From assembly GCA_964460875.1 (NCBI GenBank), contig CAYWQN010000002.1, positions 1 to 43,527 on the forward strand: a stretch of 43,527 nt of DNA, given 5' to 3'. The notes under the pieces are model-generated. The model made no database searches and was not told the DNA's origin. It was given only the letters and a program-made list of their open reading frames with translations. Both the position numbers and the translations under genes were made by a program. Source of the stretch: an uncultured Candidatus Saccharibacteria bacterium (lineage in GTDB: Bacteria; Patescibacteriota; Minisyncoccia; Phycocordibacterales; Phycocordibacteraceae). Below are positions 5,700 through 37,392 of this stretch, piece after piece; positions within the stretch are counted from its first letter, which is position 1; each line of letters opens with the position of its first letter.

Positions 5700-5782
5700 G
5701 CGTCGGTGGTAGAGTGGTCAATTACAACAGGCTGTAAACCTGTCGGCTTCGGCCTACGGAGGTTCGAATCCTCCCCGGCGCA
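5700..5782 (+). tRNA. tRNA-Tyr (anticodon GTA), long variable arm, no encoded CCA
   Basis: Acceptor GCGTCGG pairs with CCGGCGC. Anticodon stem-loop is ACAGG-CTGTAAA-CCTGT with GTA at 5734-5736. T arm is GGAGG-TTCGAAT-CCTCC at 5758-5774. Discriminator A at 5782. Confidence 0.9.
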
Positions 5783-21540: not shown

Positions 21541-22183
21541 ATGAAGATAGCGATAGTAGAAGATGAGCTCCGCCTCGCGCAGGTCCTCAAGCAGGGGCTC
21601 GAGTACGAGAATCATCGAGTGGACCTCTTCCACACCGCGAGCACCGCGCGCGAGCGGCTCGAATATTCAGGCAGCCTCTATGACCTCATCATACTCGACC
21701 TCATGCTCCCGGACGGGGACGGAACAGATGTCTGCTCCGGCATACGCGCTTCCGGCGTGCAGACGCCCGTATTAGTCTTGACCGCTCGGGACTCAACCGA
21801 AGACTAGGTGGCGCTGCTTGACCGCGGCGCAGACGATTTCCTCACCAAGCCATTCGATTTCGATGAGCTTCTGGCCCGAAGCCGGGCGCTTGCGCGCCGT
21901 GCAAACGACGGGCCGGCCGCTACCATCACCATAAGCGACGTCACCATAGTTCCGGAGCGGTTCGAGGTGCGCCGCAAGAACAAGATACTGCCTCTCACGG
22001 CGCGCGAGTTCGAGCTCCTTGCATATCTCGTGCGCAATCGCGGCAAGGTAGTGAAGCGCGAGGAACTACTTGCTAGGGTCTGGGGCCAGACGCAGGCCAC
22101 CACGAACGTAGTAGACGTACATATCCGCAATCTTCGGAAGAAACTCGACGAGCCGTTCGAAACGAAGCTCATACAAACCATTC

Positions 22184-22212
<29 letters not shown>
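21541..22212 (+). pseudogene. OmpR/PhoB-family response regulator interrupted by one in-frame TAG (21805-21807)
   Basis: The two track ORFs (21541-21807 and 21808-22212) are in the same frame. Read through, they give LTARDSTED*VALLDRGADDFLTKPF, a continuous receiver domain, followed by a winged-helix output domain (LTAREFELLAYLVRNRGKVV...HGVGYTI). Confidence 0.8.
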
Positions 22213-23164
<952 letters not shown>

Positions 23165-23259
23165 CGTTACTATCCCCACCTCGATATAAGCATTTATTAA
23201 TATTTCATTAATTTCATCACGTATACTTCAAAGTGCCCGAGTACTAACTTCGGCAATGG

Positions 23260-23988
23260 ATGAATCTATTCCCCTTATATACGAACAACACGAGGATACC
23301 GCAGGTATCTTCTAACGCGACGATACTAGCGAATCGTTACTCGTTCCGTCTTGTGCGCCGAGCGCCTGTTCTACGCGCCAAAGGGGAAGTAATTCACTCA
23401 CGAGTAGAAGTCCCTCCAGTCGAGCCGTTCCCGCCTACCGCTGTTGAGCCTCAGACCGCGCCGGAGATTGTACGGGTACAGGGAGTGGATGACGGGAAGC
23501 GCAGTTTCCTCAAGCTTGCGAGCGTCGTTGGACTCGGCGTTGTAGCTGCGTCGGCCCTACCGCAAAAAGCACAAGCGTATGTGATGGGGAGTGCACCAAC
23601 CTCAAGTGTGGTAGGTGTAAAGAATGCTTCGAATGTGCGGGTAAACCCTGCAACTCAAGAAACTCTTCAGGTACTTGTTGAAGGTAACTCGGTATTAAAG
23701 AAGACGATTAGTCTCTCAGGATCCGGGACCGTGCATACCCCTGCTTCAGGAAAAAAAGTACGCATCTATAACACCAAGTTCTCACTTGATGCCACGATGA
23801 CGAGCGTTTCCTTCCGCTTTACCTCAGGTGGCACCGATTTCGAGAAGTATGTAGCACCTCGTACCGGAGGCCTCTATGGCACGAACAACCATCCCAACTA
23901 TAAGGAAGGTGGGGTGGATGAGGTGGTGTACTGCTCGATAAGCGGCACCGGGAACGTGCAGATAAACATTGATTATTTAGAAGTGTAA
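23260..23988 (+). CDS. Hypothetical exported/membrane protein with a Tat-like KRSFLK signal-anchor segment and a C-terminal beta-rich domain
   Basis: Residues 78-106 read DGKRSFLKLASVVGLGVVAASALPQKAQA (nt 23491-23577), which compares with the Tat consensus S/T-R-R-x-F-L-K plus h-region plus AxA. First gene of a tightly spaced operon ending in tatC-tatA. The start codon is uncertain because an 80-aa N-terminal extension precedes the signal. Confidence 0.6.
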   Translation: MNLFPLYTNNTRIPQVSSNATILANRYSFRLVRRAPVLRAKGEVIHSRVEVPPVEPFPPTAVEPQTAPEIVRVQGVDDGKRSFLKLASVVGLGVVAASALPQKAQAYVMGSAPTSSVVGVKNASNVRVNPATQETLQVLVEGNSVLKKTISLSGSGTVHTPASGKKVRIYNTKFSLDATMTSVSFRFTSGGTDFEKYVAPRTGGLYGTNNHPNYKEGGVDEVVYCSISGTGNVQINIDYLEV

Positions 23989-23998
23989 TCTTATTACT

Positions 23999-26407
23999 AT
24001 GGCAAAACGAGTCACCGAGCATCTGTTCACTGGAGGCACCGTCATGTACGACGCGTACGACTCGACGAAAACTGTGCTCGGCGACCTCATCCGCCAACAA
24101 ACAGGCGCGGCATCCACTGACAAATACGCCGGTCCAACAAAAGTAGCTGTTGCCCGACCGAACGAAACGTCGGTAGCGGTTCCAGGCATCTACCCTCACG
24201 TCGTACGCTGGTCGGATAAATCAGGCTATTACATAACGGGCACCGTAGCGGTATCAGGCACCGCCGTCACCGGGTCCAGCACCGCGTGGCTCGCTGCGGG
24301 CGTGCCAGTGAATGCACGCATAGGCTTCGGTACTACCGACCCGGTAGCGGTAACGACCTGGTACAACATCGTGGCCATCCCTTCAGACACCTCACTGACG
24401 CTCGACGGATCTGCCGGCACCATAGCGGGCGGCACCTCGTTTGTTATTGATATGAACTACAACGTTGACTGGGTATTTCTAGCCGACGGTGCCGCAACCG
24501 CTGCAACAAGACGTATCACCTGCTTTGAATATCGCCGCGGTCTATCAATCTTCACCTGGAAAGGATTCATTACGCAGACGTATCCGACTGCCACGAACCA
24601 CACGATTACCGGTATGCGCGCCGTGTACGCGAAGTACACGACCGGCACCGTGGGAGTTTCCACCGCAACGGTAACGGGGAGCAGCACCACCTGGAGCGCT
24701 GACCGCATCAACATTGGCTCCCGCATCGGATTTGGTTCGTCCGACCCCACCCAGATATCTACCTGGTATTACATCAATGCCGTAGGGTCCGACACCTCAA
24801 TCACTATTCAAAACAACGTCACCGCTTCTGGTACCGGCGGCGTCGCATCGAACCTCTCAATATCCTCCGGCACCGCATACGTCATCGAGGACCTGCGCAT
24901 TCTCACTACCACAACAAACGCTACAGCCACCAACGGCGGACTCTTCATGTCCGCTGGCATGTCGCAGGATGACTTTACCCCTGCGGGCACCACTATTGCT
25001 GCAGCGGTGACCACTGACAAAGTAAAAGCAGTGTACTGGCTTGCCGATGCCTCAACCGTCACCAACGACGCGAACTCAGGCCTTGCGCTTGACGATCGGG
25101 ATAGTTGGACCCAGCAGTACTGCTACGTCATTGAGCGCGTCGCCGCGACCACGCCGTCAATATACAAATACAATTTCCGCACTGCGCTTGCGTCAATATC
25201 TGCCGGGAAAACTACCTCTGCGTTCGTGTTTGCAACCGGCATCCAGACCGTTACCGGTAACACATCAGCAACTAACAACGGCCGTGTCGGCACACTTTCC
25301 CACGGCCCGGCTTCCGGAATAAAGTCTCTCTTCTTCGCAACGACTTCGCGCATTTACCGCGTTGCAATCGGAAATATAGTAAACGGTTCGACCACATTTC
25401 TTTCTGACGCCATGGTGGAAGTACCGACCGGAGGCACCGGAACCTTTACGGCCACCGGCGCATTAACCGGCGTTGAAATTTCAGACCAGATTGACCGCCT
25501 TATCGTAACCTCAACGGGAGCTGCGGGCGTGAGAAGCTACGTAACCAAGTACAACACTAACTCCGATCCTTTCGACCATATCTTCCTGATTGACTCTAAG
25601 CAAATAGATCAGGCGGCAGCTGACTCAAGCTCAGTGCCACACCCCAACATCCAGGCCGGTATCATGAACGTCTGGTCAGAAGAAGGACTCACGTACATAA
25701 GCCGCGCCGGCACCACTTCGCTTACAAACGCACTCTACGCCGTGCCGCTTGGCGCTGATTGGTCCTATGCCGACGGCACGGTAAAACAGCGGCTTTACAC
25801 CCCATCCCTAGCGACGCCTAATGCGGTTAAGTATTCGCGTGCGTATGTAAATAATGCGCAATACTTGGGAGAAGATAATCTCACGCTTCCGACCGAACCG
25901 ATGCGCATGTATTACCGAACTTCGGGTATAAGCGATAACAGCGGCTCATGGACGCTCATCGACCAAACGGGGGACCTTTCCGGTGTTGATGGCGCGGCCG
26001 CCATACAGTTCGCAATTGAGTTCCGCACGATTGGTACGTTCTGTTTACCAACTCGCGTGTTTAACGTATGTGTTGTATATGAAGACAACACGACCGATAG
26101 CCATTACCAGCCATCGGTAGCGTTCTCTTCAACCACTGCTAAGCAGTTCGCATGGCGCTTCTCGACTGCCTTTGGCGGCACTGTGCCTACCTTGCAGATA
26201 CAGCTGTTCGACGCAGTTTCAGGAAGCCTCCTACTCACCGATGACAGCGCAACTCCAACGGGAACCTGGGAAAAATCTACAAACGATGGGGGAGCGTGGG
26301 GCGCGTACAATACCACTGACAAGGGAAATGATACGACCTATATCCGCTACACGCCGGCTGCTCTTGGCGACGATGTGAAAGTGCGTGCCCTCCTTACCCA
26401 AGCCTAA
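23999..26407 (+). CDS. Hypothetical 802-aa Thr/Ser/Gly/Ala-rich protein with an internal duplicated module and no signal peptide
   Basis: Long uninterrupted ORF 10 nt after the upstream stop. Duplicated GTVxVSxTxVTGSSTxW...RIGFG...WYxI...SDTS(L/I)T module at residues 78-151 and 212-298. Confidence 0.75.
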   Translation: MAKRVTEHLFTGGTVMYDAYDSTKTVLGDLIRQQTGAASTDKYAGPTKVAVARPNETSVAVPGIYPHVVRWSDKSGYYITGTVAVSGTAVTGSSTAWLAAGVPVNARIGFGTTDPVAVTTWYNIVAIPSDTSLTLDGSAGTIAGGTSFVIDMNYNVDWVFLADGAATAATRRITCFEYRRGLSIFTWKGFITQTYPTATNHTITGMRAVYAKYTTGTVGVSTATVTGSSTTWSADRINIGSRIGFGSSDPTQISTWYYINAVGSDTSITIQNNVTASGTGGVASNLSISSGTAYVIEDLRILTTTTNATATNGGLFMSAGMSQDDFTPAGTTIAAAVTTDKVKAVYWLADASTVTNDANSGLALDDRDSWTQQYCYVIERVAATTPSIYKYNFRTALASISAGKTTSAFVFATGIQTVTGNTSATNNGRVGTLSHGPASGIKSLFFATTSRIYRVAIGNIVNGSTTFLSDAMVEVPTGGTGTFTATGALTGVEISDQIDRLIVTSTGAAGVRSYVTKYNTNSDPFDHIFLIDSKQIDQAAADSSSVPHPNIQAGIMNVWSEEGLTYISRAGTTSLTNALYAVPLGADWSYADGTVKQRLYTPSLATPNAVKYSRAYVNNAQYLGEDNLTLPTEPMRMYYRTSGISDNSGSWTLIDQTGDLSGVDGAAAIQFAIEFRTIGTFCLPTRVFNVCVVYEDNTTDSHYQPSVAFSSTTAKQFAWRFSTAFGGTVPTLQIQLFDAVSGSLLLTDDSATPTGTWEKSTNDGGAWGAYNTTDKGNDTTYIRYTPAALGDDVKVRALLTQA

Positions 26408-26409
26408 TT

Positions 26410-27030
26410 ATGATTACTATCTCAAAGGGTGATCGTGTCGCGGGACTTCCCGACCTCATAGTGTCCTCTCCGTCGGGAGAGTACGCAGACGTAGACCTTA
26501 TTCTCTGTGCGCGGAAGGACGCGCCGAACTTCGACGCCGCCATGTACCAAGCGCAGTTTATCCGGTACGGAGAAGTCGTCTATCAGCACGAGACACCGGA
26601 AGCGCTTGGAGCGGTGCTTGTCGCCATTGATCCAGAATCCACTCATGATGCTGCGCAGCTGTGGCGGGAAGAAGAGAAGCGTCGCATCGCACGTGAAGGC
26701 GGTACTCTAGTGCCAGAAGATCAAACTCCTGCACCCGATGCCGTTGAACCTCAGACAACTATTCCTGAGGAAGAAGAGGACGACGTGAAGTTCTTTAAAG
26801 AGAAAGAGGAAGAAGCAGCTACTACCACACCAGATGAAGCGGTGCCGGACAGAGAAATCCCTGTCATTGATATTGAAGAACCGCCACTCGGCGAGGTGGG
26901 TGGTGCAGCATCTTCTACAGAGCCAATCGCCGATCCTTCAGTCCCCGTCATACAAATTGACGAGCCAGTGGTGACTCCTCCAGTTGAAGATGTGCCAGCG
27001 CTCGATATGTCGAGCACAACACCGCAATAG
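26410..27030 (+). CDS. Hypothetical acidic protein (206 aa) with a Pro/Glu/Thr-rich disordered tail
   Basis: Starts 2 nt after the previous stop. The C-terminal half is low complexity (EEEEDD, EKEEEAATTTPDE, repeated PVI(D/Q)I(E/D)EP). Confidence 0.6.
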   Translation: MITISKGDRVAGLPDLIVSSPSGEYADVDLILCARKDAPNFDAAMYQAQFIRYGEVVYQHETPEALGAVLVAIDPESTHDAAQLWREEEKRRIAREGGTLVPEDQTPAPDAVEPQTTIPEEEEDDVKFFKEKEEEAATTTPDEAVPDREIPVIDIEEPPLGEVGGAASSTEPIADPSVPVIQIDEPVVTPPVEDVPALDMSSTTPQ

Positions 27031-27032
27031 CC

Positions 27033-27215
27033 ATGGCGCTAACCGATATCGACTTTAACGAAGGAGAAGGACAAGATTTCATCGTCGAGCTTGCGACTGG
27101 AACTCTGGGTACGCCGGGAGATATTCTGGTCGAAGCAGGGAGCGATGCGTATCTTCTCCTAGAAACCCCAGCAGGGCAGGGAGGCGGGGATGAAATATTC
27201 ATCATAAACGACTAA
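27033..27215 (+). CDS. Hypothetical small acidic protein (60 aa)
   Basis: Starts 2 nt after the previous stop, in operon context only. Confidence 0.45.
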   Translation: MALTDIDFNEGEGQDFIVELATGTLGTPGDILVEAGSDAYLLLETPAGQGGGDEIFIIND

Positions 27216-27238
27216 CCAGGTCTGGTATCCTTCAGGGC

Positions 27239-27970
27239 ATGGACGATTCAGCGCCGATTACGGAACGCTATGGCGAGTATCTTGAAGAGCTACGGCGCAG
27301 ACTCTACCGTCTTGCGCTTATCTTCGTCGCTTCTTTCTTCATAGGAGTTGGTTCTACCAGTATCTTGCTGCCTTTTTTCGTAACACTCTTCTCTGTGCCG
27401 GGAGTGACCATCATTGCCACCTCGCCGTTTCAACTTCTTGAACTGACGATGAATACCGGTTTTTTCTCGGCGATAGCGCTTACCCTTCCGTTTGCGCTTC
27501 GTGAAGTCTATGCCTTTCTCCACGACGCGCTCTTACCACGTGAACGGCGTCTTATTTTCTGGTACATTCCGCTCGCCCTTCTTCTCTTCGCCGCCGGCTT
27601 TACCTACGGATTTGCGATTATGTATTACGCTATCGTGGTCATCGCGAACGTCAACATCGGGTTCGGTATCACTAATCTCTGGAATATTACCCAATTCATC
27701 TCACAAATCCTTATCACGGCAGCACTCCTCGGCGTCATCTTCGAGCTTCCGTTAATCCTTTCTGGCCTTATCCAGCTCGGCGTGTTGTCGGTAGACTACC
27801 TGCGCCGTCATCGTCGCATCGCATATGCAGGGATATTCATCTTTGTTGCTTTACTTCCCCCAACCGACGGGCTATCCTTCCTGGTGATGTCCCTTCCGCT
27901 TGTGGCGCTCTACGAAGTGACGATTGCCGTCAATTCGTTCCGCCGCCGGAAAGAACTCTTAACAATATAA
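27239..27970 (+). CDS. tatC: Twin-arginine translocase subunit TatC
   Basis: 243 aa. N-terminal EYLEELRRRL helix followed by six hydrophobic segments, and the LLPPTDG motif typical of TatC. TGGTATCCT lies 7 nt upstream. Confidence 0.85.
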   Translation: MDDSAPITERYGEYLEELRRRLYRLALIFVASFFIGVGSTSILLPFFVTLFSVPGVTIIATSPFQLLELTMNTGFFSAIALTLPFALREVYAFLHDALLPRERRLIFWYIPLALLLFAAGFTYGFAIMYYAIVVIANVNIGFGITNLWNITQFISQILITAALLGVIFELPLILSGLIQLGVLSVDYLRRHRRIAYAGIFIFVALLPPTDGLSFLVMSLPLVALYEVTIAVNSFRRRKELLTI

Positions 27971-27982
27971 TTTTTGGTACCT

Positions 27983-28141
27983 ATGTTTGGACTCGGCTCG
28001 AATGAACTCATCATCATCGCGGTCATTCTCGTACTTTTGTTTGGTGCCACCCGCATCCCAGCGCTCACGAAAGGAGTAGCAGACGCTATTCGCACACTGC
28101 GCGGTGCATTCAAAGACGAAGACAAAAACAAGAAGGTATAG
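27983..28141 (+). CDS. tatA: Twin-arginine translocase subunit TatA/E (52 aa; below the ORF-track cutoff)
   Basis: Hand translation MFGLGSNELIIIAVILVLLFGATRIPALTKGVADAIRTLRGAFKDEDKNKKV matches the TatA pattern: MFGxGxxELxxIxxxxxLLFG, then an amphipathic helix with GxxxxxFK. TAG stop at 28139-28141. Confidence 0.8.
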   Translation: MFGLGSNELIIIAVILVLLFGATRIPALTKGVADAIRTLRGAFKDEDKNKKV

Positions 28142-28147
28142 CACAAA

Positions 28148-28180
28148 GAAAAATCCCGGTCCTAGCCGGGATTTTTCTTG
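28148..28180 (+). terminator. Intrinsic terminator after tatA
   Basis: GAAAAATCCCGG-TCCTAG-CCGGGATTTTTC followed by TTG. It ends the 23260-28141 operon. Confidence 0.75.
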
Positions 28181-28234: not shown

Positions 28235-31200
28235 GTGAAGATTTCATTAAGCGGCCCTGCCGCTTTAAGCGGGAATCAAAAAAGGACTAGGATACGCATT
28301 GCGGGCCTAGCGTTGTTTGTTGCGCTATATATAGGGCTTCCCGCCGCCGTAGAAGCTGCGTACCAGCAGTTCCTTCCAGGAACTGATATCTACTTTGGTG
28401 AATTCGTATACGACGATGACTTTGTAGCAACTACTACCGCAGGCTGCACCATGACGGTCTATGATCCGTCTGGCTCACTTGTGGTGAATGCGGCAACAAT
28501 GACCGTTGACCCCAATGGCTTCTACGCCTATTCCTTTACACCAACCGAAACCCGGGGGGTATGGCCCGCATCCATGTCCTGCGGATCGGCATTAAACGGA
28601 AGTCTGGTGAAGCTCGATAAGACGTTTGAGATATCAGACAATGTTGTTTCCTCTTCGTCCGTTGCTGCCCTAGTAAATGCGAATACGAATCTTGCGGTTG
28701 CGACCGCTTCCTCTTCGCTCTCAGCAACCCTTCCTAATTCCATTTGGGCCTTCTCAGGTCGCACTCTTACATCGTTCGGAACATTAGTAGCTGACATCTG
28801 GGCATCCGGCACTCGCACCCTTACCGGATTTGGCACCCTTGCGGCTGACGTGTGGACATCCGCAACACGTACACTCACCGCTGCCGGTCTCACCTCGGGA
28901 TCACTGGCTCTTCAGTCAGATGTCACCACCGCTAGTTCGTCACTGGGCACGGCCATCACGAACAGTCAAACGGCTATTAATGCGAACACGAACTCACAGA
29001 TACTTACTGCCTCAACATCGCTCGCGTCGTTCATCAATACGAACACCAACGCGATTGTGCTCGCCGCTTCAAGCTCGCTGGGAGCGCAATTCAACGTCCT
29101 GGGAGCGACTATTGCAGGCATACCGGCGGCGGTCTGGAATATCACTACCGCATCGCTCTCAAGCCCAGGATCGATAGGGAAGCTTATCGTGGATAACCTC
29201 GATGTCGCGGTATCGACGGTTTCGGGTGGTGGTGGCCTCACGGCGGTTGATATCTGGACCTATGGCACACGAACGCTCACCGCAGCAACCCTCTCTTCAG
29301 GAGCACTCGCGCTTCAGTCTGACGTGACGACCGCCTCCTCCTCTATTGCGGCAGTGGTCAATGGAAATACGAATGCACAGGTACTTGCCGCTTCCACCTC
29401 ACTTGCTTCGAACATCAACACCAACACCAATGCCATTGTTCTTGCTGCCTCCTCGTCCCTCGGTGCTCAGTTCTCATCTATAACGTCATCCATTGCTTCC
29501 ATTCCAACCAACGTTTGGGCCGCAGGGACGCGTACTCTGACCGGCTTCGGAACGCTCGCAGCTGACGTCTGGACCAACGGTACTCGTACGCTTACCGGTG
29601 CCGGTCTCTCGTCAGGCTCTCTTGCCACGCTGTCTGACCTACAGACAGCATCATCATCTCTTGGCGCCGCTATTACTAACAGCGAAACGGCAATTAATGC
29701 GAACACGGATGCTGAGGTGCTTGCGGCTTCCACCTCACTTGCGTCCAATATCAACACAAACACGAACGCACAGGTACTCACCGCTTCTACCTCCCTTGGT
29801 CTCTCGCTTTCATCAATCGCATCTTCTATTACTTCGATACCGGCGAACGTATGGGCAGCAGGCACGCGTACGTTAACTGGGTTCGGTACTCTTGCTGCTG
29901 ACGTTTGGACCAATGGCACCAGAACCCTTACCGGAGCCGGCTTGTCGTCTGGATCCCTTGCCACTTTGTCTGACGTACAGAACGCTTCAAGCTCAGTGGC
30001 TGCAGTCGTAAACTCAAATACCGACAGTCGAGTTGCAATTGCTACCTCCTCGCTTGCTGCGGTGGTGAATGCGAACACCAACGCAACCGTTCTTGCCGCT
30101 TCCTCCTCGCTTGGCGCTCAGTTCGGCACGCTCGCAACAGCAATATCAGGTGTACCTGCCGGAGTCTGGAACATCACTACCGCCTCGCTCTCAAGTCCGG
30201 GCACGATAGGGAAGCTCCTCGTGGATAACATCGATGTACCTATTTCAAGCGGTGGCAGTCTTACAGCAGCCGATGTATGGGCGTTCGGCTCTCGCACTCT
30301 TACCGCCGCAACGTTGAGTGCCGGTTCGCTTGCACTTCAGTCTGACGTAACCACCGCATCCAGCTCACTCGCTGCAGTTATTAATGCCAACACCAACAGC
30401 GCAACAGCAGGAGTTACGAGTAGCGTGAACAGCAACACCAATGCAACGGTACTTACTGCATCGTCATCCCTTGCAACCTCGATTCCAGTGAACGTATGGA
30501 ATGCATCAGTACGCACGCTTTCATCATTTGGCACACTCGCTACCGATGTGTGGAGCGCAGCAAGCAGGACCCTCACGGCAGCTGGGTTGACGAGTGGTTC
30601 GCTCGCAACGTTGTCTGATGTGCAGACGGCCTCAAGCTCACTCGGGACAGCAATAACAAATAGTCAAACGGCAATTAACGCGAACACCGACAGTAGGGTA
30701 GGTATCGCATCGTCATCTCTTGCTGCGGTCATCAATGCAAATACGAACCTCTCCGTTCTCACGGCGTCCACCTCGCTTGGTCTCTCGCTTTCATCGATAG
30801 CAACTTCGATCACTTCAATTCCTACCGCAGTGTGGGCCGCTGGCACACGCACTCTTACCGGGTTCGGCACCCTTGCAGCTGACGTTTGGACGAATGGCAC
30901 CAGGACCCTTACCGGTGCAGGTCTCACCTCAGGGTCCCTTGCCACGCTGTCTGACCTACAGACAGCATCATCATCTCTTGGCGCCGCTATTACTAACAGC
31001 GAAACGGCAATTAATGCGAACACGGATGCTAAAGTACTTGCAGCTTCCACCTCGCTTGCATCCAATATCAACACAAACACAAACGCTACGGTGCTCGCTG
31101 CGTCCTCATCTCTTGGCGCTCAGTTCTCCTCTATTACGTCCGCTATCACTGCAGTTCCAGCGGCAGTATGGAACGTCGCAAGCTCTACGCTCACCACTCC

Positions 31201-34200
31201 AGGTTCTATTGGCAAGCATATCGTTAACAACCTCGATATTGCGGTCTCGACTATTTCAAGCGGCAGTGCCATTACCCCTGCTGACATCTGGGCGTACGGT
31301 ACGCGCTCCCTCACCACAGCCGCACTTTCTTCAGGGGCGCTGGCCACCAATGCTGATATCAACGCAGCGACCACGAGTGTGAACACCACCATCGGTACTG
31401 CCTCTTCATCCCTGGCAGCGGTTATCAACACCAATACCAATACGCAGGTTCTTACGGCTTCAACTTCGCTTGGCGCTCAGTTCTCGTCGATCACCTCATC
31501 CATTGCTTCCATCCCAACCAACGTTTGGGCCGCAGGGACACGCACCCTTACCGGGTTCGGCACCCTTGCGGCTGACGTCTGGACGAACGGCACACGAACA
31601 CTCACTGGCGCAGGGTTGTCGTCTGGATCCCTTGCGACGTTGTCTGATGTACAGACCGCTTCGAGCTCTGTCGCTGCGGTCGTGAATGCAAACACTAATA
31701 GTGCGACGGCAGGAGTTACGAGTAGCGTGAACAGTAATACCAATGCAACGGTACTTGTTGCATCGTCATCCCTTGCAACCTCGATACCAATAAATGTATG
31801 GAATGCATCAGTACGCACCCTTTCATCATTCGGTACGCTTGCAACCGATGTCTGGAGCGCAGCATCACGCACGCTCACTGCAGCTGGCCTTACCTCAGGA
31901 TCGCTCGCGCTTCAGTCAGACGTGACTACCGCGTCCTCCTCACTTGGTGCGGCAATAACGAACAGTCAAACCGCCATTAACGCAAATACGGATAGCCGTG
32001 TGGCAGTAGCAACATCGTCACTTGCTGCGGTCGTGAATGCGAACACAAACGCAACCGTTCTTGCAGCATCGTCCTCACTTGGCGCTCAGTTCTCGTCGAT
32101 CACCTCATCCATTGCATCCATCCCAACCAACGTATGGGCGGCAGGGACGCGTACTCTGACCGGCTTCGGAACGCTCGCAGCTGACGTCTGGACCAACGGT
32201 ACTCGTACGCTCACGGCTGGCACGCTTTCGGCGGGGTCGCTCGCCTTGCAGTCTGACGTAACGACGGCATCTACCTCTCTTGGCACAGCGATAACCAATA
32301 GTCAGACGGCGGTGAACGCGAACACCAACGCGCAGGTACTAGCGGCCTCCACTTCGCTTGCGTCGAATATAAATACCAATACGAACGCACAGATTCTCGC
32401 AGCCTCTTCTTCGCTCGCAACCGCGATACCCGTGAATGTCTGGAACGCGTCAGTCCGCACGCTCTCGTCGTTCGGTACGTTCGCGACCGATGTTTGGAGC
32501 GCCGCTTCGAGGACGCTCACGGCGGCGGGTCTGACCTCGGGAAGTCTCGCAACCTTGTCTGACGTTCAGACCGCATCATCCTCTATCGCGGCCGTCGTGA
32601 ATGCGAACACGGACACGAGGGTGACCACGGCAACTTCCTCGCTTGCAGCCGTCATAAACGCCAACACGAATGCGCAGGTGTTAACGGCATCCACCTCGCT
32701 TGGCCTCTCGCTCTCATCAATTGCTTCGTCCATCACCTCAATTCCAGCAAACGTCTGGGCGGCGGGCTCGCGTACGCTCACCGGTTTTGGAACGCTCGCG
32801 GCTGATGTGTGGACGAACGGGACGAGAACACTTACCGCAGGCACCCTTACTTCAGGAACGCTCGCCTTGCAATCTGACGTGACGACGGCTTCGTCGTCCC
32901 TCGGCACCGCCATTACGAACAGCCAGACGGCGGTGAACGCAAATACGAACGCGACGGTGCTCGCCGCATCCACGTCACTTGCCGCAGGAACCGCTGCAAG
33001 CCAGACCGTCGTAAACGCAAACACCAATGCCGCAGTCTTGGCCGCATCGTCCTCGCTTGCAACTTCTATACCCGTGAACGTGTGGAATGCATCAGTCCGC
33101 ACGCTCTCGTCGTTCGGTACGCTCGCGACCGATGTTTGGAGCGCCGCTTCGAGGACGCTCACGGCGGCGGGTCTGACCTCGGGAAGTCTCGCAACCTTGT
33201 CTGACGTTCAGACCGCCTCGTCGTCTGTCGCTTCAGTAGTTAACGCAAACACCAGTGCTGCAGTTCTCGCCGCATCCACGTCGCTTGCCTCGAACATAAA
33301 CGCGAATACCAACGCGACGGTGCTCGCCGCGTCGTCGTCCTTGGGTGCGCAGTTCTCGTCGATTACCTCATCAATTAGCGCGCTGCCGGCTGCGGTCTGG
33401 AACGTCGCAAGCACCACCCTTACGACCCCAGGCTCGATAGGCAAGCATATCGTCGGCAACCTCGATATCGTCGTATCGTCGATATCGGGCGGCGGCGGAC
33501 TTACCGCAGCAGACGTCTGGGCGTACGGTACGCGCTCGCTCACCACAGCGGCACTCTCTTCCGGCTCATTGGCCACGAATGCTGACATAAATACCGCCAC
33601 CTCGACCCTCACCACGACTATCACGACCGCCTCCTCGTCTATCGCCGCAGTCGTGAATGCAAATACCAATAGCGCCACGGCAGGGGTGACGAGCGGCGTG
33701 AATAGCAACACAAACGCCGCCGTTCTCGCCGCATCGTCGTCGCTTGCGACCTCGATACCGGTGAATGTGTGGAATGCCTCGGTCCGAACCCTCACCAGCT
33801 TCGGCACTATCGCGTCTGACGTCTGGAGCGCTGCAACGAGGACGCTCACGGCAGGCACACTCACCTCAGGAACGCTTGCGCTCCAGTCTGACGTTCAGAC
33901 CGCGTCTTCCTCCCTTGGCTCGGCGATAACGAACAGTCAGACGGCGATAAATGCCAATACCGACAGCCGCGCCTCCATCGCATCCTCGTCGCTTGCGGCG
34001 GTGATAAATGCGAACACCAACGCACAGGTACAGACTGCGTCCACCTCGCTCGGCGCCACGCTTGCCGCGATGCCGGCTGCAGTATGGGCGTCAGCCACAA
34101 GGACGCTCACCTCAGGCGCCTCTATCGCCTCAGACATCTGGGCGGCAGGCACGCGCACCCTCACGTCCCTCACGCTCTCGTCGCAGTCGCCGTGGTCGGT

Positions 34201-35086
34201 CGGCATGTCTGACTTCAGCACCATCACGGCAGGCGAGACCTATCGCGCGACGGTGACGACGGTCTACAACGGCACGCTTACCGATTCGGCAAACCTGCCG
34301 ACCATCATCGTGTATGACGCAAACCGCAACGTGGTCGTGAACGGCGCCGCCATGACGCGCACCGCGGTAGGCACCTACGAATACAGCTACGTGACAAGCG
34401 TGAGCGCCGCAGGCGGCGTATGGGAGACCGTCGTGTCTGCCACGGTTGAGTCAGGGAAGACGTTGCCGGGCAACGACTACTGGAACGTCTCGGTCGCGCC
34501 GCCGCAGGTCATCATCCAGAGCATGAGCAATACCGTGGTGCCGAACATCACCGCGAACGTCCGCATCACGAACGAGGGTGATGTGCCCTACGAATACCAG
34601 TACGAATGGTGCGTCGTCTCGAGCCTCGCAAATGGCTGCGGCGGCGGCGATGATATCGCGTACGGATCGGCCGCGAAGCTCATCAATCCGCTCGAGAACT
34701 TCGACACCGTCCTGTCGGCAACCGTCCCCGCGGCCGGCACCTATTACTTCAAGGTCGCGGTCTACTACGGCTCTGACGTATCACGCGCAAGCCGCCAATT
34801 CGCCGCAACTGCAGCAACCACCTCCGGAGGCGGGGGTGGCGGAGGCGGAGGCGGAGGCGGCGGGGGAGGAGGCGGAACCCCGGTCCCCGGAAGCGGCAGC
34901 TGCGGAGGAAATGTCGCCGATATCAACTGCGACGGCCGGGTGAATGCCGTGGACTTTTCCATCATGCTTGCGTATTGGAAGACCCAGGCGCCGTTCCGTA
35001 ATCCGCGCGTCGACCTCAATACTGACGCGCGCGTCGACGCCGTCGACTTCTCGATACTCCTCTATCACTGGGGCGCCACACGCTAA
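28235..35086 (+). CDS. Giant (2,283 aa) tandem-repeat surface protein with N-terminal signal/anchor, poly-Gly linker and C-terminal type-I dockerin
   Basis: A single 6.85-kb ORF. N-terminus KRTRIRIAGLALFVALYIGLPAAVEAA. About 17 Ser/Thr/Ala/Asn-rich modules. Seventeen consecutive Gly codons. The C-terminus has two dockerin calcium-binding repeats, DINCDGRVNAVDFSIML and DLNTDARVDAVDFSILL. Confidence 0.85.
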   Translation: MKISLSGPAALSGNQKRTRIRIAGLALFVALYIGLPAAVEAAYQQFLPGTDIYFGEFVYDDDFVATTTAGCTMTVYDPSGSLVVNAATMTVDPNGFYAYSFTPTETRGVWPASMSCGSALNGSLVKLDKTFEISDNVVSSSSVAALVNANTNLAVATASSSLSATLPNSIWAFSGRTLTSFGTLVADIWASGTRTLTGFGTLAADVWTSATRTLTAAGLTSGSLALQSDVTTASSSLGTAITNSQTAINANTNSQILTASTSLASFINTNTNAIVLAASSSLGAQFNVLGATIAGIPAAVWNITTASLSSPGSIGKLIVDNLDVAVSTVSGGGGLTAVDIWTYGTRTLTAATLSSGALALQSDVTTASSSIAAVVNGNTNAQVLAASTSLASNINTNTNAIVLAASSSLGAQFSSITSSIASIPTNVWAAGTRTLTGFGTLAADVWTNGTRTLTGAGLSSGSLATLSDLQTASSSLGAAITNSETAINANTDAEVLAASTSLASNINTNTNAQVLTASTSLGLSLSSIASSITSIPANVWAAGTRTLTGFGTLAADVWTNGTRTLTGAGLSSGSLATLSDVQNASSSVAAVVNSNTDSRVAIATSSLAAVVNANTNATVLAASSSLGAQFGTLATAISGVPAGVWNITTASLSSPGTIGKLLVDNIDVPISSGGSLTAADVWAFGSRTLTAATLSAGSLALQSDVTTASSSLAAVINANTNSATAGVTSSVNSNTNATVLTASSSLATSIPVNVWNASVRTLSSFGTLATDVWSAASRTLTAAGLTSGSLATLSDVQTASSSLGTAITNSQTAINANTDSRVGIASSSLAAVINANTNLSVLTASTSLGLSLSSIATSITSIPTAVWAAGTRTLTGFGTLAADVWTNGTRTLTGAGLTSGSLATLSDLQTASSSLGAAITNSETAINANTDAKVLAASTSLASNINTNTNATVLAASSSLGAQFSSITSAITAVPAAVWNVASSTLTTPGSIGKHIVNNLDIAVSTISSGSAITPADIWAYGTRSLTTAALSSGALATNADINAATTSVNTTIGTASSSLAAVINTNTNTQVLTASTSLGAQFSSITSSIASIPTNVWAAGTRTLTGFGTLAADVWTNGTRTLTGAGLSSGSLATLSDVQTASSSVAAVVNANTNSATAGVTSSVNSNTNATVLVASSSLATSIPINVWNASVRTLSSFGTLATDVWSAASRTLTAAGLTSGSLALQSDVTTASSSLGAAITNSQTAINANTDSRVAVATSSLAAVVNANTNATVLAASSSLGAQFSSITSSIASIPTNVWAAGTRTLTGFGTLAADVWTNGTRTLTAGTLSAGSLALQSDVTTASTSLGTAITNSQTAVNANTNAQVLAASTSLASNINTNTNAQILAASSSLATAIPVNVWNASVRTLSSFGTFATDVWSAASRTLTAAGLTSGSLATLSDVQTASSSIAAVVNANTDTRVTTATSSLAAVINANTNAQVLTASTSLGLSLSSIASSITSIPANVWAAGSRTLTGFGTLAADVWTNGTRTLTAGTLTSGTLALQSDVTTASSSLGTAITNSQTAVNANTNATVLAASTSLAAGTAASQTVVNANTNAAVLAASSSLATSIPVNVWNASVRTLSSFGTLATDVWSAASRTLTAAGLTSGSLATLSDVQTASSSVASVVNANTSAAVLAASTSLASNINANTNATVLAASSSLGAQFSSITSSISALPAAVWNVASTTLTTPGSIGKHIVGNLDIVVSSISGGGGLTAADVWAYGTRSLTTAALSSGSLATNADINTATSTLTTTITTASSSIAAVVNANTNSATAGVTSGVNSNTNAAVLAASSSLATSIPVNVWNASVRTLTSFGTIASDVWSAATRTLTAGTLTSGTLALQSDVQTASSSLGSAITNSQTAINANTDSRASIASSSLAAVINANTNAQVQTASTSLGATLAAMPAAVWASATRTLTSGASIASDIWAAGTRTLTSLTLSSQSPWSVGMSDFSTITAGETYRATVTTVYNGTLTDSANLPTIIVYDANRNVVVNGAAMTRTAVGTYEYSYVTSVSAAGGVWETVVSATVESGKTLPGNDYWNVSVAPPQVIIQSMSNTVVPNITANVRITNEGDVPYEYQYEWCVVSSLANGCGGGDDIAYGSAAKLINPLENFDTVLSATVPAAGTYYFKVAVYYGSDVSRASRQFAATAATTSGGGGGGGGGGGGGGGGGTPVPGSGSCGGNVADINCDGRVNAVDFSIMLAYWKTQAPFRNPRVDLNTDARVDAVDFSILLYHWGATR
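28646..34194 (+). repeat. In-frame tandem repeat array (about 17 modules of roughly 100-125 aa, or 300-375 nt) inside the giant gene
   Basis: Recurrent peptide boxes (V/I)W-x3-(T/S)R(T/S)LT, GSLA(T/L)(L/Q)SDVxTASSS and NANTNxxVLAASSSL. Copies share identical stretches of 71, 93 and 94 nt. Confidence 0.9.
34826..34876 (+). repeat. 17 consecutive glycine codons (GGN microsatellite-like tract)
   Basis: The sequence reads gga ggc ggg ggt ggc gga ggc gga ggc gga ggc ggc ggg gga gga ggc gga, in the frame of the giant gene. Confidence 0.9.
34919..35083 (+). other. Dockerin type-I module (two EF-hand-like repeats) at the C-terminus of the giant protein
   Basis: D-x-N-x-D-(G/A)-x-V-x-x-x-D-F-S-I-(M/L)-L occurs twice, separated by about 20 residues. 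Confidence 0.8.
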
Positions 35087-35089
35087 TCT

Positions 35090-35935
35090 ATGAACTATCT
35101 TTACGCTATCGCACTGTTCTTGCTCCTCCTGGTCGCCGAGCCTGCCCAGGCGGCGCGCTTGTCGGTTGAAGCGCCGCTAGCCGCCGCCGAAGCGCCATTC
35201 TATCTTCCGGTAGTCCTTCAGACCGAGAACGATTCTATAAACGCCGTTACCGGCTCCATACTCGTCCCGCCCGGCATCACGATAGACAGCATCGACACTT
35301 CAGGCTCAGCCTTTGCGCTCTTTGCTGAAGGCCCGTCATATGTCCTGGCCTCACATGCCATCGAATTCACCGCAGGCGCCCCGCACGGCATAGCAGCAGG
35401 CGAAGTGGCGCTCCTCTTTATCGTGAAAGCGCATGCCATAGCGCCAGGAACCTATACCTTCACCCCGCAGAATATGTCTGCGTACGCGAACGACGGGGCT
35501 GGAAGTCCGGCAAGCATCGCTTTTTCATCGACGGCAGTATCCGTTGGCGCTCCTGGCTCGGTGCATGTGGATCCACCGAAGACTGAGCACGCAGCGCCCA
35601 TCATCGCGGCCATAGGCCAGGACGACTCCTTGTTCGAAGGGAAGTGGTTCGCCACCTTCTACGGCGGCGCTTCAGGAAGCGCGGTTGATCATTATCTCGT
35701 GCGCGAAGGGTGGTGGCACGGCACGGTAAAAGCGAACCGCTACTACGTGCTCGAAGACCAGCGCCGCACCACGACCCTCTGGATAACGGCAGTAGGCGAG
35801 AACGGCAAGAAAGTGACGACGGTTATTCCCGCCTTCGAGCCATGGCCGGAACGGCTTCTCTTCGCGGCAATCGTGCTTGTCGCAGGCGCGCTCGCGGCGC
35901 TCCTATGGAAGATGCGCCGAAGGCGTTCACACTAG
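35090..35935 (+). CDS. Membrane-anchored cohesin-like protein (281 aa)
   Basis: Sec-type signal (LLLLVAEPAQA). A roughly 130-aa beta-sandwich-like region shows the cohesin-like pattern (FYLPVVLQTENDSINAVTGSILVPPGITIDSID...GEVALLFIVKAHAIAPGTYTF). C-terminal TM plus basic stop-transfer tail (LLFAAIVLVAGALAALLWKMRRRRSH). Starts 3 nt after the dockerin gene. Confidence 0.55.
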   Translation: MNYLYAIALFLLLLVAEPAQAARLSVEAPLAAAEAPFYLPVVLQTENDSINAVTGSILVPPGITIDSIDTSGSAFALFAEGPSYVLASHAIEFTAGAPHGIAAGEVALLFIVKAHAIAPGTYTFTPQNMSAYANDGAGSPASIAFSSTAVSVGAPGSVHVDPPKTEHAAPIIAAIGQDDSLFEGKWFATFYGGASGSAVDHYLVREGWWHGTVKANRYYVLEDQRRTTTLWITAVGENGKKVTTVIPAFEPWPERLLFAAIVLVAGALAALLWKMRRRRSH

Positions 35936-35937
35936 CC

Positions 35938-37392
35938 ATGATGCGCTTCACGTACGCCGCCGCTCTCATCCTCCTGCTTACGGGCGCGCCCGTCGTCGCA
36001 ACCGCAGCGACCATTCAAGTAACGCCCGCATCAGTCTCCGTGCATGCAGGCGATATCGTGACGGTGCGCCTCATCGCGAACACCCAGGGGGCGGCCATAA
36101 ACCAGGGCGAAGGCACGCTCCGCTTCCCGACCGACATGCTCGACGTAGTGTCTGCAAGCAAAGCAGGCTCCATATTCACGCTCTGGGTGGAGGAGCCCGC
36201 GTACTCGAACGGCGCCGGTACCGTGCATTTCGACGGCGGCGTGCCCACCCCGGGGTACACCGGCTCCGCGGGTACCATGCTTGCCATCACCTTTCATGCA
36301 AAAAAAGCCGGGACGGCGACGCTTTCGCTTACCGATAGCGCGCTCCGGGCAAACGACGGCTTCGGCACCGACGTGCTGACCGCGTCAAACGGGGGAGTCA
36401 TTACCATCACGGAGACGGTAGCGCCTGCGCCAACACCCGCGACGCCTGCGCCCGCCACACCGAGCGCGCCCGTCGGCGCCGGCAGCATCGCTTCGCTCAC
36501 CTCGTCAACGCACAGCGATCAGACCGCGTGGTACCAGAACGAGAATGCCTTGATGACGTGGCAGCTCCCGGCAGGCGCTACCGCCGTGCAGACTATCGTC
36601 GACCGCAGCGCGACTGCGGCGCCTTCGGTCGAGTACAAGCCGGCTATCGTCGAGAAGCGCGTCACTAACCTTGCTGACGGCGTGTGGTACTTCGGAGTGC
36701 GCGCGAAAGTAGGAGGCGCCTGGGGGCCGGTAGCGCGCTACACGCTCCAGATTGACCGCTCGGCTCCCGAGCTCGCCTCAACCATAACGCTCGACTACGA
36801 TGAAGCGGCTCAGGATCTCCTCATATCCGGCGTATCCGCCTCTGACGAGGTGTCCGGCATCGACCACTACGAGCTTTCGGTAGACGGGAAGAATCCGCTT
36901 CGGGTGGCGTCAGACGCTTTTGCCGGAGGTTCGTACCGCCTCCACTACGCAAAGACGGGCACGCACTCGATACAGCTTCGCGCGTATGACAAGGCGGGGA
37001 ACCACACCGAGGCTTCCGGCTCGTTCAATACCCCGACGCCGCTTGCCGACCAGACGCTCTGGCGCATAGGCGGCCTCTCCATCACCTTCGCCTGGTTCAT
37101 ACTGCTCGTTCTCCTCATATCGCTTGTTTCGCTCGCAGCTGCAGCGACCGCTTGGTATAAACTGTATATGCTCCGCGCGGGAGCGAAATCCCGCGTCGAG
37201 AAGCGCGACAAGATGCTGCACCGCTCGCTACGCATCTATAAAGAAGAGCTGGAGCGGCACCTGCGCACTTTGGAACGTGCAGGATCAAAGCGCGAGCTCA
37301 CCGACGAGGAGGCGGACCTGAACGAAGACCTCAAGAAGAACGTGGACGACCTGGAACGCTATCTGACCAAAGAGTTCAAGAAGTACGATTAG
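35938..37392 (+). CDS. Membrane-anchored cohesin-domain protein (484 aa) with Ig/FN3-like middle region and cytoplasmic coiled-coil tail
   Basis: Signal peptide MMRFTYAAALILLLTGAPVVATA. Cohesin-like segment IQVTPASVSVHAGDIVTVRLIANTQGAAINQGEGTLRFPTDMLDVVS...GTMLAITFHAKKAGTATLSL. Pro/Ala/Thr linker, then TM FAWFILLVLLISLVSLAAAATAW, then a charged tail. The start is trimmed from the track value 35710 to the ATG just after the upstream stop. Confidence 0.62.
   Translation: MMRFTYAAALILLLTGAPVVATAATIQVTPASVSVHAGDIVTVRLIANTQGAAINQGEGTLRFPTDMLDVVSASKAGSIFTLWVEEPAYSNGAGTVHFDGGVPTPGYTGSAGTMLAITFHAKKAGTATLSLTDSALRANDGFGTDVLTASNGGVITITETVAPAPTPATPAPATPSAPVGAGSIASLTSSTHSDQTAWYQNENALMTWQLPAGATAVQTIVDRSATAAPSVEYKPAIVEKRVTNLADGVWYFGVRAKVGGAWGPVARYTLQIDRSAPELASTITLDYDEAAQDLLISGVSASDEVSGIDHYELSVDGKNPLRVASDAFAGGSYRLHYAKTGTHSIQLRAYDKAGNHTEASGSFNTPTPLADQTLWRIGGLSITFAWFILLVLLISLVSLAAAATAWYKLYMLRAGAKSRVEKRDKMLHRSLRIYKEELERHLRTLERAGSKRELTDEEADLNEDLKKNVDDLERYLTKEFKKYD

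Follow-up and report, generated by a model that had tools for sequence, protein, structure and literature searches.

In Bacillus subtilis, the phoD-tatAd-tatCd unit encodes a minimal TatAC pair of the pathway for twin-arginine translocation (Tat) that is dedicated to its substrate, and this substrate, PhoD, is a single signal-bearing enzyme. Actinobacterial Rieske proteins contain an internal Tat motif after helices inserted by Sec; they hold an Fe-S cluster and stay anchored in the membrane. Export of signal-less partners as hitchhikers is described as an established mode of Tat transport (PMC10924467, PMC4273604). For Saccharibacteria and other Patescibacteria, the literature on Tat that we found is at the inventory level only: tat genes were reported in one Saccharibacteria genome, where substrates were sought with TATFIND (Starr et al. 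2018; PMC6031116), and another survey lists Tat in freshwater members of the candidate phyla radiation (CPR; PMC9166423). TATFIND rejects KR motifs (PMC1182353), and the cassette reported below would account for the small number of Tat substrates that such genomes yield with standard tools. Here we describe a cassette of six genes, not described in that literature, in a stretch of 43,527 nucleotides from an uncultured Candidatus Saccharibacteria bacterium (this whole stretch is called the window). In this cassette, four genes that appear to be derived from phages (genes 1-4) are joined to tatC and tatA, and only the first of the four encodes a predicted Tat signal.

The six open reading frames (ORFs) are located on the forward strand between positions 23260 and 28141, as follows.

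23260-23988, plus strand: gene 1, 242 residues
23999-26407, plus strand: gene 2, 802 residues; predicted all-beta protein without signal peptide; a beta-propeller into which beta domains are inserted, and a fibre-like repeat present twice
26410-27030, plus strand: gene 3, 206 residues; conserved domain of about 100 residues, then an acidic proline-rich tail; isoelectric point (pI) 4.05
27033-27215, plus strand: gene 4, 60 residues; pI 4.05, 13 Asp/Glu, no Lys/Arg
27239-27970, plus strand: tatC, 243 residues
27974 (TTG start, 55 residues) or 27983 (ATG start, 52 residues) to 28141, plus strand: tatA

The successive gaps are 10, 2, 2 and 23 nucleotides, and the last gap is 12 nucleotides for the ATG start of tatA or 3 nucleotides for the TTG start. 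These coordinates agree with the tight six-gene operon of the preliminary description of this DNA, in which the last gap was given as 12 nucleotides; this value holds for the ATG start.

TatC matched PF00902 over the full model (E-value 1.9e-36; 126 bits, cut-off 25.1), and TatA matched both PF02416 (3.7e-10; 39.3 bits, cut-off 21) and TIGR01411 (1.1e-11). Both proteins are divergent members of their families, since their scores were under the NCBIfam equivalog cut-offs (105.6 versus 132.7 bits for TatC). Glu102 of TatC, in the motif PRERRL, was invariant across 18 relatives. No TatB-specific match was found at the locus, and tatB may be located elsewhere in the genome. The window contains one tatA in the cassette, and up to four copies stand in tandem after tatC in relatives. 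Multiplied tatA was observed in many of them, for example L008, L010, L019, L023, L030, L128 and L137 (L-numbers denote the loci fetched for comparison: 85 via gene 2, 77 further via TatC, and 80 from IMG/VR).

The product of gene 1 is divided into four parts.

23260-23496, plus strand: n-region, residues 1-79; basic (pI 9.7), poorly conserved, expected to be cytoplasmic
23497-23577, plus strand: predicted Tat-type signal core, residues 80-106; KRSFLK, hydrophobic (h-) region LASVVGLGVVAASALP, and c-region QKAQA with an AxA site
23578-23694, plus strand: conserved N-terminal segment of the mature protein, residues 107-145, beginning with YVMGSAPTSSVVGVKNASNVRVNPATQETL; linker of 38 residues
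23695-23988, plus strand: predicted jelly-roll domain, residues 146-242 and stop codon; beta-sandwich, predicted local distance difference test (pLDDT) score 77-93

Residues 78-106 of this protein are DGKRSFLKLASVVGLGVVAASALPQKAQA. This segment holds the single match to the pattern [KR]RxF[LIVM][KR] in all six frames of the window (43.5 kb). As in Tat signals, the h-region is weak, a lysine is present at position -4, and the AQA sequence occupies residues 104-106. Over a 19-residue window the hydrophobicity of the h-region is 1.84; the fibre and anchor proteins encoded downstream have Sec signals that reach about 2.3 in their best 15-residue window. Residues 78-98 were helical in the AlphaFold model.

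In an alignment of 27 diverse homologues of gene 1, Asp77, Arg81, Ala104, and Ala106 were invariant, and Phe83, Leu84, and Lys85 were conserved in at least 90%. Among 170 non-identical homologues, the twin position was KR in 144, RR in 24, and NR in 2. The (K/R)RxFLK motif was present in 146 of the 170 and the AxA site in 157, of which 141 have a basic residue within the last six positions before AxA. The h- and c-regions together comprise about 18 residues with a mean hydropathy of 1.2 (n = 170). Tat accepts a lysine in place of the first twin arginine; Salmonella TtrB is a natural case (PMC1182353). The KR segment is thus a conserved Tat-type signal, as far as can be judged from its sequence, and the near-consensus signal with an h-region and AxA site proposed in the preliminary description is borne out by the conservation of the motif. 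The gene 1 product is most probably a substrate of the dedicated TatAC encoded in the same operon.

The long leader ahead of the motif is a trait of the family. In the 170 homologues, the number of residues before the twin position has a median of 48 (5-95% range, 29-94). The preliminary description had suspected that the annotated start might be wrong. A mis-called start was rejected: the in-frame starts are limited to ATG at 23260, GTG at 23353 and GTG at 23485, with a stop codon at 23245, the frame is open in relatives, and the substitution pattern is that of coding sequence. Between gene 1 and its counterpart in L001, the leader differs at 32, 27 and 53 first, second and third codon positions, respectively, and the remainder at 23, 10 and 105. 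This means that the leader is coding, yet weakly constrained. At the GTG of codon 76, a purine-rich stretch directly abuts this codon, a further reason for the rejection. It should be added that the leader contains RYSFRL at residues 26-31 (23335-23352), and that a KYSFRL-like motif, (K/R)YSF(R/K)L, is found near the N-terminus in 56 of the 170 homologues. A chaperone, or the acidic products of genes 3 and 4, might dock at this motif. A further observation concerns two gene 1-like proteins on the minus strand (L047, 10324-11154; L049, 10315-11157): three to four predicted membrane helices precede the motif KRHFFKL, and the C-terminal domain is not a jelly-roll.

Residues 107-145 are largely highly conserved, also in relatives that have another C-terminal domain. 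The AlphaFold confidence of this segment was below 55 when the protein was modelled alone, which suggests that the segment may depend on a partner. The jelly-roll domain that follows was matched by Foldseek to the cement protein of Helicobacter phage KHP40 (7dou_4; E-value 6.4e-4, template modelling (TM) score 0.54), and further matches were the capsid protein of satellite tobacco mosaic virus and the Ena spore-appendage subunits of Bacillus. The beta-rich domain of about 135 residues assigned earlier behind the signal is not a single domain: it comprises a linker of 38 residues and a jelly-roll of some 100.

When 1.84 billion representatives were searched exhaustively with a profile of the gene 1 alignment, 351 matches were obtained, of which the best 150 were classified. 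Nine of these 150 combine the signal with the jelly-roll. Another 37 consist of the jelly-roll only, with hydrophilic or coiled-coil N-termini, and none of them has a real Tat motif. The other large class comprises 102 proteins in which the signal module and linker precede other C-terminal domains; the motif is kept in 98 of them. A Pfam scan of ten of these C-terminal domains gave no match. By this comparison, gene 1 is a fusion of a lineage-wide predicted Tat-signal module with a phage jelly-roll. The module consists of a long basic n-region, (K/R)-R-x-F-L-K, a weakly hydrophobic helix, the AxA site, and the 38-residue linker.

The products of genes 2, 3, and 4 have no hydrophobic stretch: the maximum Kyte-Doolittle value is about 1.0 over 19 residues. 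The earlier view that these three proteins have no signal peptides and that those of genes 3 and 4 are acidic agrees with these values and with the pI of 4.05 of each of the two. The AlphaFold model of the gene 2 product had a pLDDT of 78 and a predicted TM score (pTM) of 0.74. Foldseek matched it in the PDB to phage endosialidases, to the tail complexes of cyanophages Pan3 and Pam1, and to many beta-propellers. In BFVD it matched proteins of uncultured phages (best E-value, 1.3e-12), and the named matches were P22 gp10-like proteins, stabilisation proteins, tail tubular protein B, tail knob protein, and K1E tailspike. The E-values were 1.3e-12 to 5e-6, yet the TM-scores were only 0.14-0.27, so that the likeness is one of fold class and not a family assignment.

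The gene 2 family has more than 1438 homologues, all unnamed and none with a Pfam domain. Their N-terminus, MA(K/L)R(A/V)xEHxFTG, is conserved, and a Tat motif was found in none of 120 homologues. Scans of genes 1-4 against Pfam, NCBIfam, and PHROG gave no match except the near-threshold Tat-signal score of gene 1, and PDB sequence searches with family profiles gave no match either. No cofactor-binding family was found for them in Pfam, in NCBIfam, or in the PDB searches. A prophage-like relative of gene 2 (L053) matched phrog_1591 (tail fibre; 2.4e-8) over one repeat only. The tail of the gene 3 product contains 29 Asp/Glu and 18 Pro in 106 residues; the gene 3 profile used here excludes a gene 2-gene 3 fusion in L006 that spans a stretch of N. 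The conserved termini of the gene 4 product are MALTDI... and ...GGG-IFIIND.

The linkage of this block to tatCA was compared in the 85 gene 2-anchored loci, scanned by tblastn and profile hidden Markov models (HMMs). The order of the window was found in about 50 of the 85, often with a second tatA. Dozens of Saccharibacteria genomes share it, with gene 2 identities as low as about 40%. About ten loci represent a variant with three tandem gene 2 paralogues. These paralogues, of about 800-950 residues each, lie between genes 1 and 3 in L068-L070, L074, L077-L079, L082, L083 and L085, and in L032 and L058 gene 2 paralogues are interleaved with genes 3 and 4. The linkage withstands rearrangement: tatCA is divergent and upstream in L018; L024 and L025 have tatC-tatA-tatA upstream, on the same strand; in L020, tatA stands upstream whereas tatC follows 5 kb downstream; and the arrangement is inverted in L047 and L049. 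Conservation of the six-gene order in relatives, which had been named earlier as a check, was thus found in about 50 loci, and the linkage survives inversion or transposition of tatCA.

When only loci with sufficient flanks were counted, signal-bearing gene 1 and tat genes were both present in 46 non-redundant genomic gene 2 loci, and neither was present in 48 (4 genomic and 44 viral). There were no mixed cases. The reverse comparison started from TatC relatives: among the 77 further loci obtained in this way, 49 have at least 5 kb of upstream sequence. A gene 1-like gene was in range in 38 of these 49, and 6 more hold gene 2, with gene 1 beyond the fetched range. In other words, at least 44 of the 49 TatC loci lie in such cassettes. 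The other five have neither a gene 1-like gene nor gene 2 in range, and at least three of them have giant ORFs at or near the locus edge. Several Tat-cassette loci carry Gammaproteobacteria or Bdellovibrionales labels; these are probably mislabelled or mis-binned Patescibacteria contigs.

Counterparts of the block are found in phages. A scan of IMG/VR with gene 2 gave 133 matching stretches, from which 80 loci were kept (39-55% identity, full length). Neither tatC nor tatA was found within 10 kb of gene 2 in any of the 80, and Tat signals were likewise absent from all 80. Six genomic loci in metagenome-assembled genomes (MAGs) labelled as other phyla also encode gene 2 at 42-51% identity without gene 1 or tat: L046 (on a 1.36-Mb contig labelled Armatimonadota), L053, L062, L067, L071 and L084. 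The neighbours were phage-like in four of the five of these loci that were scanned, and comprise portal, a fusion of head protease with major head protein, tail fibre, tail spike, minor tail and virion structural proteins.

Viral or prophage-like neighbours were scanned in a few loci only. In the viral loci L191, L196 and L200, a jelly-roll gene of the gene 1 type without Tat signal is directly upstream of gene 2; in L191 (5485-5865) it encodes a protein of 126 residues that is essentially the jelly-roll alone. A major head gene lies just upstream in L196 and L200, and an SU10-type adaptor gene lies just downstream in L200. Terminase is a neighbour in L194, and a neighbouring protein in L191 combines a papain-like peptidase, a peptidoglycan-binding domain, and a phage lysozyme. 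Mini-genes resembling gene 3 (55-64 residues, matching its first 55 or so residues) were found beside gene 2-like genes in about 15 viral loci, and mini-genes resembling gene 4 (51-60 residues, starting with MALTDI) in about 13. Gene 4-like ORFs in viral or prophage-like loci include those of L046 (1.8e-16), L182, L176, L164 and others. They always follow gene 2; the gene 3-like ORFs mostly follow it and precede it in some loci. All four gene types have phage counterparts, mostly in the order of the window, and none of the viral loci holds all four. When gene 2 and two prophage-like relatives were compared by tblastn with 50,697 cultured-phage records, no match was found, so that the phage relatives of gene 2 are known from metagenomes only.

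Genes 1-4 can be read from these comparisons as a phage-derived block, a feature that the preliminary description had overlooked. The bacterial copies appear to have added the Tat module on gene 1, the acidic tail on gene 3, and tatCA.

A sister cassette was found in about 20 TatC-anchored loci of other Patescibacteria. It has the same gene 1 signal and linker (LV(M/F)GSxPxSxVVGVK), joined to a different C-terminal domain that these loci share. Its order is a gene 1-like gene, a large protein, a GH73-like glucosaminidase, tatC and tatA (L088, 2177-7912; also L089, L092, L104, L119, L127, L156, L114, L134 and L093). The large protein has 944-1980 residues and starts with MALTNNLKxQVDLPVWEW; the GH73-like protein has 178-370 residues and starts with MNIDYLIQLL. 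Neither has a signal peptide. PF01832 (glucosaminidase) matched the L088 protein with 31.5 bits (cut-off 30.2), and five others scored 22-29 bits. Glucosaminidases of the GH73-like type act on peptidoglycan, outside the cytoplasm.

The HMMs of genes 2, 3 and 4 detected neither the large nor the GH73-like proteins, even at E = 1, and we therefore treat the sister payloads as non-homologous to genes 2-4. L104 and L112 encode a protein of 497 residues in which the Tat module is fused to repeats of the large protein (32-37% identity, E-values to 1e-23). This means that the domain type of the large protein also occurs behind a Tat signal. What appears to be a constant chassis is formed by the signal module of gene 1 together with TatC, TatA, the fibre, and the anchors, and the C-terminal domain of gene 1 and the signal-less genes are variable. 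This domain is swapped together with the signal-less genes, as one would expect if gene 1 were an adaptor matched to its cargo.

The ends and the surroundings of the operon comprise the following features.

23165-23259, plus strand: spacer between the histidine kinase gene and gene 1, presumed promoter region; 95 nucleotides, 63% A+T
28146-28179, plus strand: intrinsic terminator-like hairpin closing the operon; 15-bp G+C-rich stem, 4-nucleotide loop, T-rich tail
28235-35086, plus strand: repetitive fibre, 2283 residues; Sec-type signal, and a type I dockerin at the C-terminus (nucleotides 34916-35059)
35090-35935: paralogue of the following gene, also with a Sec signal and a strongly hydrophobic segment close to the C-terminus
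35938-37392, plus strand: putative anchor with a Sec signal, a cohesin-like domain (nucleotides 36013-36360) and, close to its C-terminus, a strongly hydrophobic segment

The hairpin is the only strong one, as had been noted earlier for the terminator after tatA: the remaining terminator-like matches in the region have stems of 5-11 bp, and their number (6 found versus 5.1 expected) is at the chance rate. The spacer is richer in A+T than the window (63% versus about 44%), so that this part of the preliminary description stands. Its identification as a promoter does not stand in the same way; the sigma-70 consensus scan of the spacer gave no match, and a promoter role is therefore only presumed. 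Genes for an OmpR-type response regulator and a histidine kinase (21808-23164) are directly upstream of the operon, and likewise in L006 and L009. This two-component pair might regulate the cassette.

Outside the cassette and its neighbours, the window consists mostly of housekeeping genes, and several ORFs had no Pfam match. Besides the two-component pair, the products include five aminoacyl-tRNA synthetases, ScpA and ScpB, an M23 peptidase, a D-Ala-D-Ala carboxypeptidase, and MraY-like, FtsW and MurG proteins. Within the window, Rfam matched one tRNA gene only (5700-5782). The scan of the other window ORFs detected no redox enzyme, as the preliminary description had stated.

The fibre dockerin matched PF00404 with 30.3 bits (cut-off 22.9), and the hydrophobicity of the fibre N-terminus is 2.32. 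The anchor scored 18.3 bits against cohesin PF00963, below the cut-off of 24.1 (E-value 0.0028; model positions 1-123 of 139). The start of its ORF at 35710 is likely to be wrong; ATG at 35938 fits better. The two paralogues after the fibre are probably membrane anchors for the fibre dockerin. The gene 1 product had also been considered as the cohesin partner of the dockerin and was rejected: no cohesin was among the 50 fold matches listed, and the anchor downstream is the better candidate. Homologues of the fibre and of the cohesin-like anchor were present in the fetched flanks of 58 of the 85 gene 2-anchored, 46-49 of the 77 TatC-anchored, and none of the 80 viral loci. Where the order was checked, these homologues were downstream of tatA in both cassette types. 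The adjacency of the operon to the dockerin fibre locus, pointed out earlier, is thus a conserved association.

With slightly more confidence than doubt, we propose that the phage-derived block of genes 1-4 is coupled to a private TatAC, and that the gene 1 product is a Tat adaptor that carries its signal-less partners out in a hitchhiker-like manner. The gene 2 product would fold in the cytoplasm, and those of genes 3 and 4 would be bound subunits or assembly helpers. The jelly-roll of gene 1 would bind the gene 2 product, the signal would engage TatC, and TatA would pass the folded complex. Signal peptidase would probably cleave after AQA; alternatively, the helix might be retained as an anchor. 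Since four phage-type proteins are joined to Tat with a signal on the first only, a phage-like structure is probably formed on the cell surface, where it would stand beside the Sec-exported dockerin fibre and the cohesin-like anchors. Its most likely role would be to contact the host bacterium's envelope or to attack it. The tailspike- or nozzle-like fold of gene 2, the lysins beside the phage relatives, and the GH73-like payload of the sister cassette point to this role. The use of Tat might be explained by the nature of the cargo: virion proteins are adapted to folding in the cytoplasm, and would therefore need folded export.

Several points weigh against this proposal. The motif in the window is D-G-K-R-S-F-L-K, with KR instead of the consensus RR, and the signal scored 16.5 bits against TIGR01409, just under the cut-off of 16.7. 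It is preceded by 79 residues; Tat signals usually have fewer than about 30, so that the motif is not N-terminal in the usual sense. In cells of the Gram-positive type, Tat substrates are predicted poorly from RR/KR motifs; of 69 candidates in B. subtilis, only 1 was Tat-dependent (PMC1182353). A trimer or hexamer of the gene 2 product, such as phage tail proteins form, would be too large for Tat, and export would therefore have to precede assembly. The pairing of genes 1 and 2 is not universal in phages, because gene 1-like genes were detected beside 3 (and one weak case) of the 80 viral gene 2 genes. In neighbour-joining and unweighted pair group (UPGMA) clustering, Tat-linked and viral gene 2 copies were intermixed with no clean split. 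Because distance clustering mixes them, we make no claim on the number and direction of transfers. As a separate observation, two Tat-linked gene 2 copies clustered with the viral group; they may be those of L047 and L049.

A different reading is that the gene 1 product alone uses TatAC, being secreted or anchored with its N-terminus inside and its C-terminus outside, and that the products of genes 2-4 stay in the cytoplasm, their co-transcription having another cause, for example a role in a cytoplasmic assembly, in regulation or in defence. The targeting signal is confined to gene 1, the placement of the gene 2 product outside the cell is part of our proposal and not an observation, and the membrane helices ahead of the motif in the gene 1-like proteins of L047 and L049 suit anchoring. 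We nevertheless consider this reading rather unlikely. Gene 2 co-occurs strictly with signal-bearing gene 1 and tat (46 loci versus 0), the gene 1 jelly-roll is the natural neighbour of gene 2 in phages, and the C-terminal domain of gene 1 changes in step with the intervening genes. Furthermore, the signal-less peptidoglycan hydrolase-like protein of the sister cassette would be useless in the cytoplasm, and the phage relatives of gene 2 are virion proteins, which act at cell surfaces.

The four points on the motif given above would also suit an ordinary Sec signal or membrane anchor in gene 1, with tatCA adjacent by chance and serving unlinked substrates. This is improbable in view of the conservation of x-R-x-F-L-K (the arginine is invariant, and Phe, Leu and Lys are kept in at least 90%), and RR itself occurs in 24 homologues. 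The gene 1 helix is less hydrophobic than the adjacent Sec signals and is followed by a basic c-region; the motif is kept in 98 of the 102 proteins that share the signal module only; and tatCA stays beside gene 1-like genes despite rearrangements and cargo swaps. It is very improbable that, instead of a cellular surface system, the block represents the structural module of a resident prophage or of a phage remnant, or that it acts in superinfection or as a decoy: all four proteins have phage counterparts and the gene 2 clustering mixes viral and cellular copies, but capsid, portal, terminase and integrase genes were not found among the window ORFs scanned, the flanking ORFs with Pfam matches are housekeeping genes except for those of the fibre and anchors, the cassette is present in dozens of species-level genomes with gene 2 identity from 99% to about 40%, and tat genes and Tat signals occur in none of the 80 viral loci. 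This span of genomes and identities agrees with long vertical retention, and we take the locus to be a chromosomal, vertically kept Saccharibacteria cassette.

Coupling of the block to a private TatAC through gene 1, the reading that we prefer, can be extended tentatively. The two cassette types might be forms of a modular, hitherto unrecognised Tat-dependent surface organelle of Patescibacteria, in which a conserved chassis receives interchangeable phage-derived payloads, plugged in via the adaptor domains of gene 1 and exported folded to grip or breach the envelope of the bacterium that these epibionts inhabit. We regard this extension as possible, with more doubt than confidence. If it is true, the organelle would be domesticated phage hardware for host recognition and wall penetration, delivered by Tat and not by a virion. 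In CPR bacteria, host attachment and exploitation are largely unknown, and the cassette offers a small, highly conserved, lineage-wide gene set whose mechanism can be tested by knock-out. Gene 2 alone belongs to a family of more than 1400 members. In the field of Tat export, the proposal would mean a large natural class of non-redox cargo with mostly KR signals, long leaders, and a private TatAC, and probable hitchhiker export of phage-type proteins, which would explain the need for folded export.

Comparison with described systems shows both likeness and difference. The fibre resembles the cellulosome-type cohesin-dockerin arrangement in its type I dockerin, and the anchor does so in its cohesin-like domain and the hydrophobic segment at its C-terminal end. 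Here, however, glycoside hydrolase modules are absent, the cohesin match is sub-threshold, and the link to Tat is by synteny only. Actinobacterial Rieske proteins are similar in having the Tat motif deep in the protein, especially with respect to the gene 1-like proteins of L047 and L049, and they show that the motif can work behind a long N-terminal sequence or membrane helices. In gene 1, by contrast, the AxA site is conserved and a cofactor motif is lacking. Among podovirus virion proteins, P22 gp10, the T7-type tubular protein B, and the endosialidase tailspikes share the beta-propeller fold class of gene 2, and the KHP40 cement protein shares the jelly-roll fold of gene 1. The gene order also resembles that of phage structural modules, and relatives of gene 2 occur in viral contigs at 39-55% identity. 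In contrast, gene 2 shows low TM-scores (0.14-0.27) to these proteins, no Pfam or PHROG membership, and no cultured-phage match, and the cellular copies own a Tat signal and a translocase.

The closest counterparts are on the side of export. As in PhoD-TatAdCd, a TatA-TatC pair without TatB stands in one unit with its presumed substrate. The differences are that three signal-less genes lie here between the substrate gene and tatC, that the order is substrate, tatC, tatA, and that tatA is often multiplied in relatives. As in the E. coli Tat hitchhikers HybO/HybC, DmsAB, and PaoABC, the signal is on a small subunit, and larger signal-less partners are encoded alongside. The known partners exit as a pre-folded complex; here such a complex is proposed. 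The known cases are cofactor-containing redox enzymes, whereas the cargo here is structural and of apparent phage origin, without detectable cofactor enzyme, and the signals are mostly of the KR type, behind leaders of 50-80 residues. Compared with both the hitchhiker and the PhoD-TatAdCd systems, the cassette differs in its lack of a cofactor enzyme, its KR signals, its very long leaders, its phage-derived cargo, and its modular adaptor.

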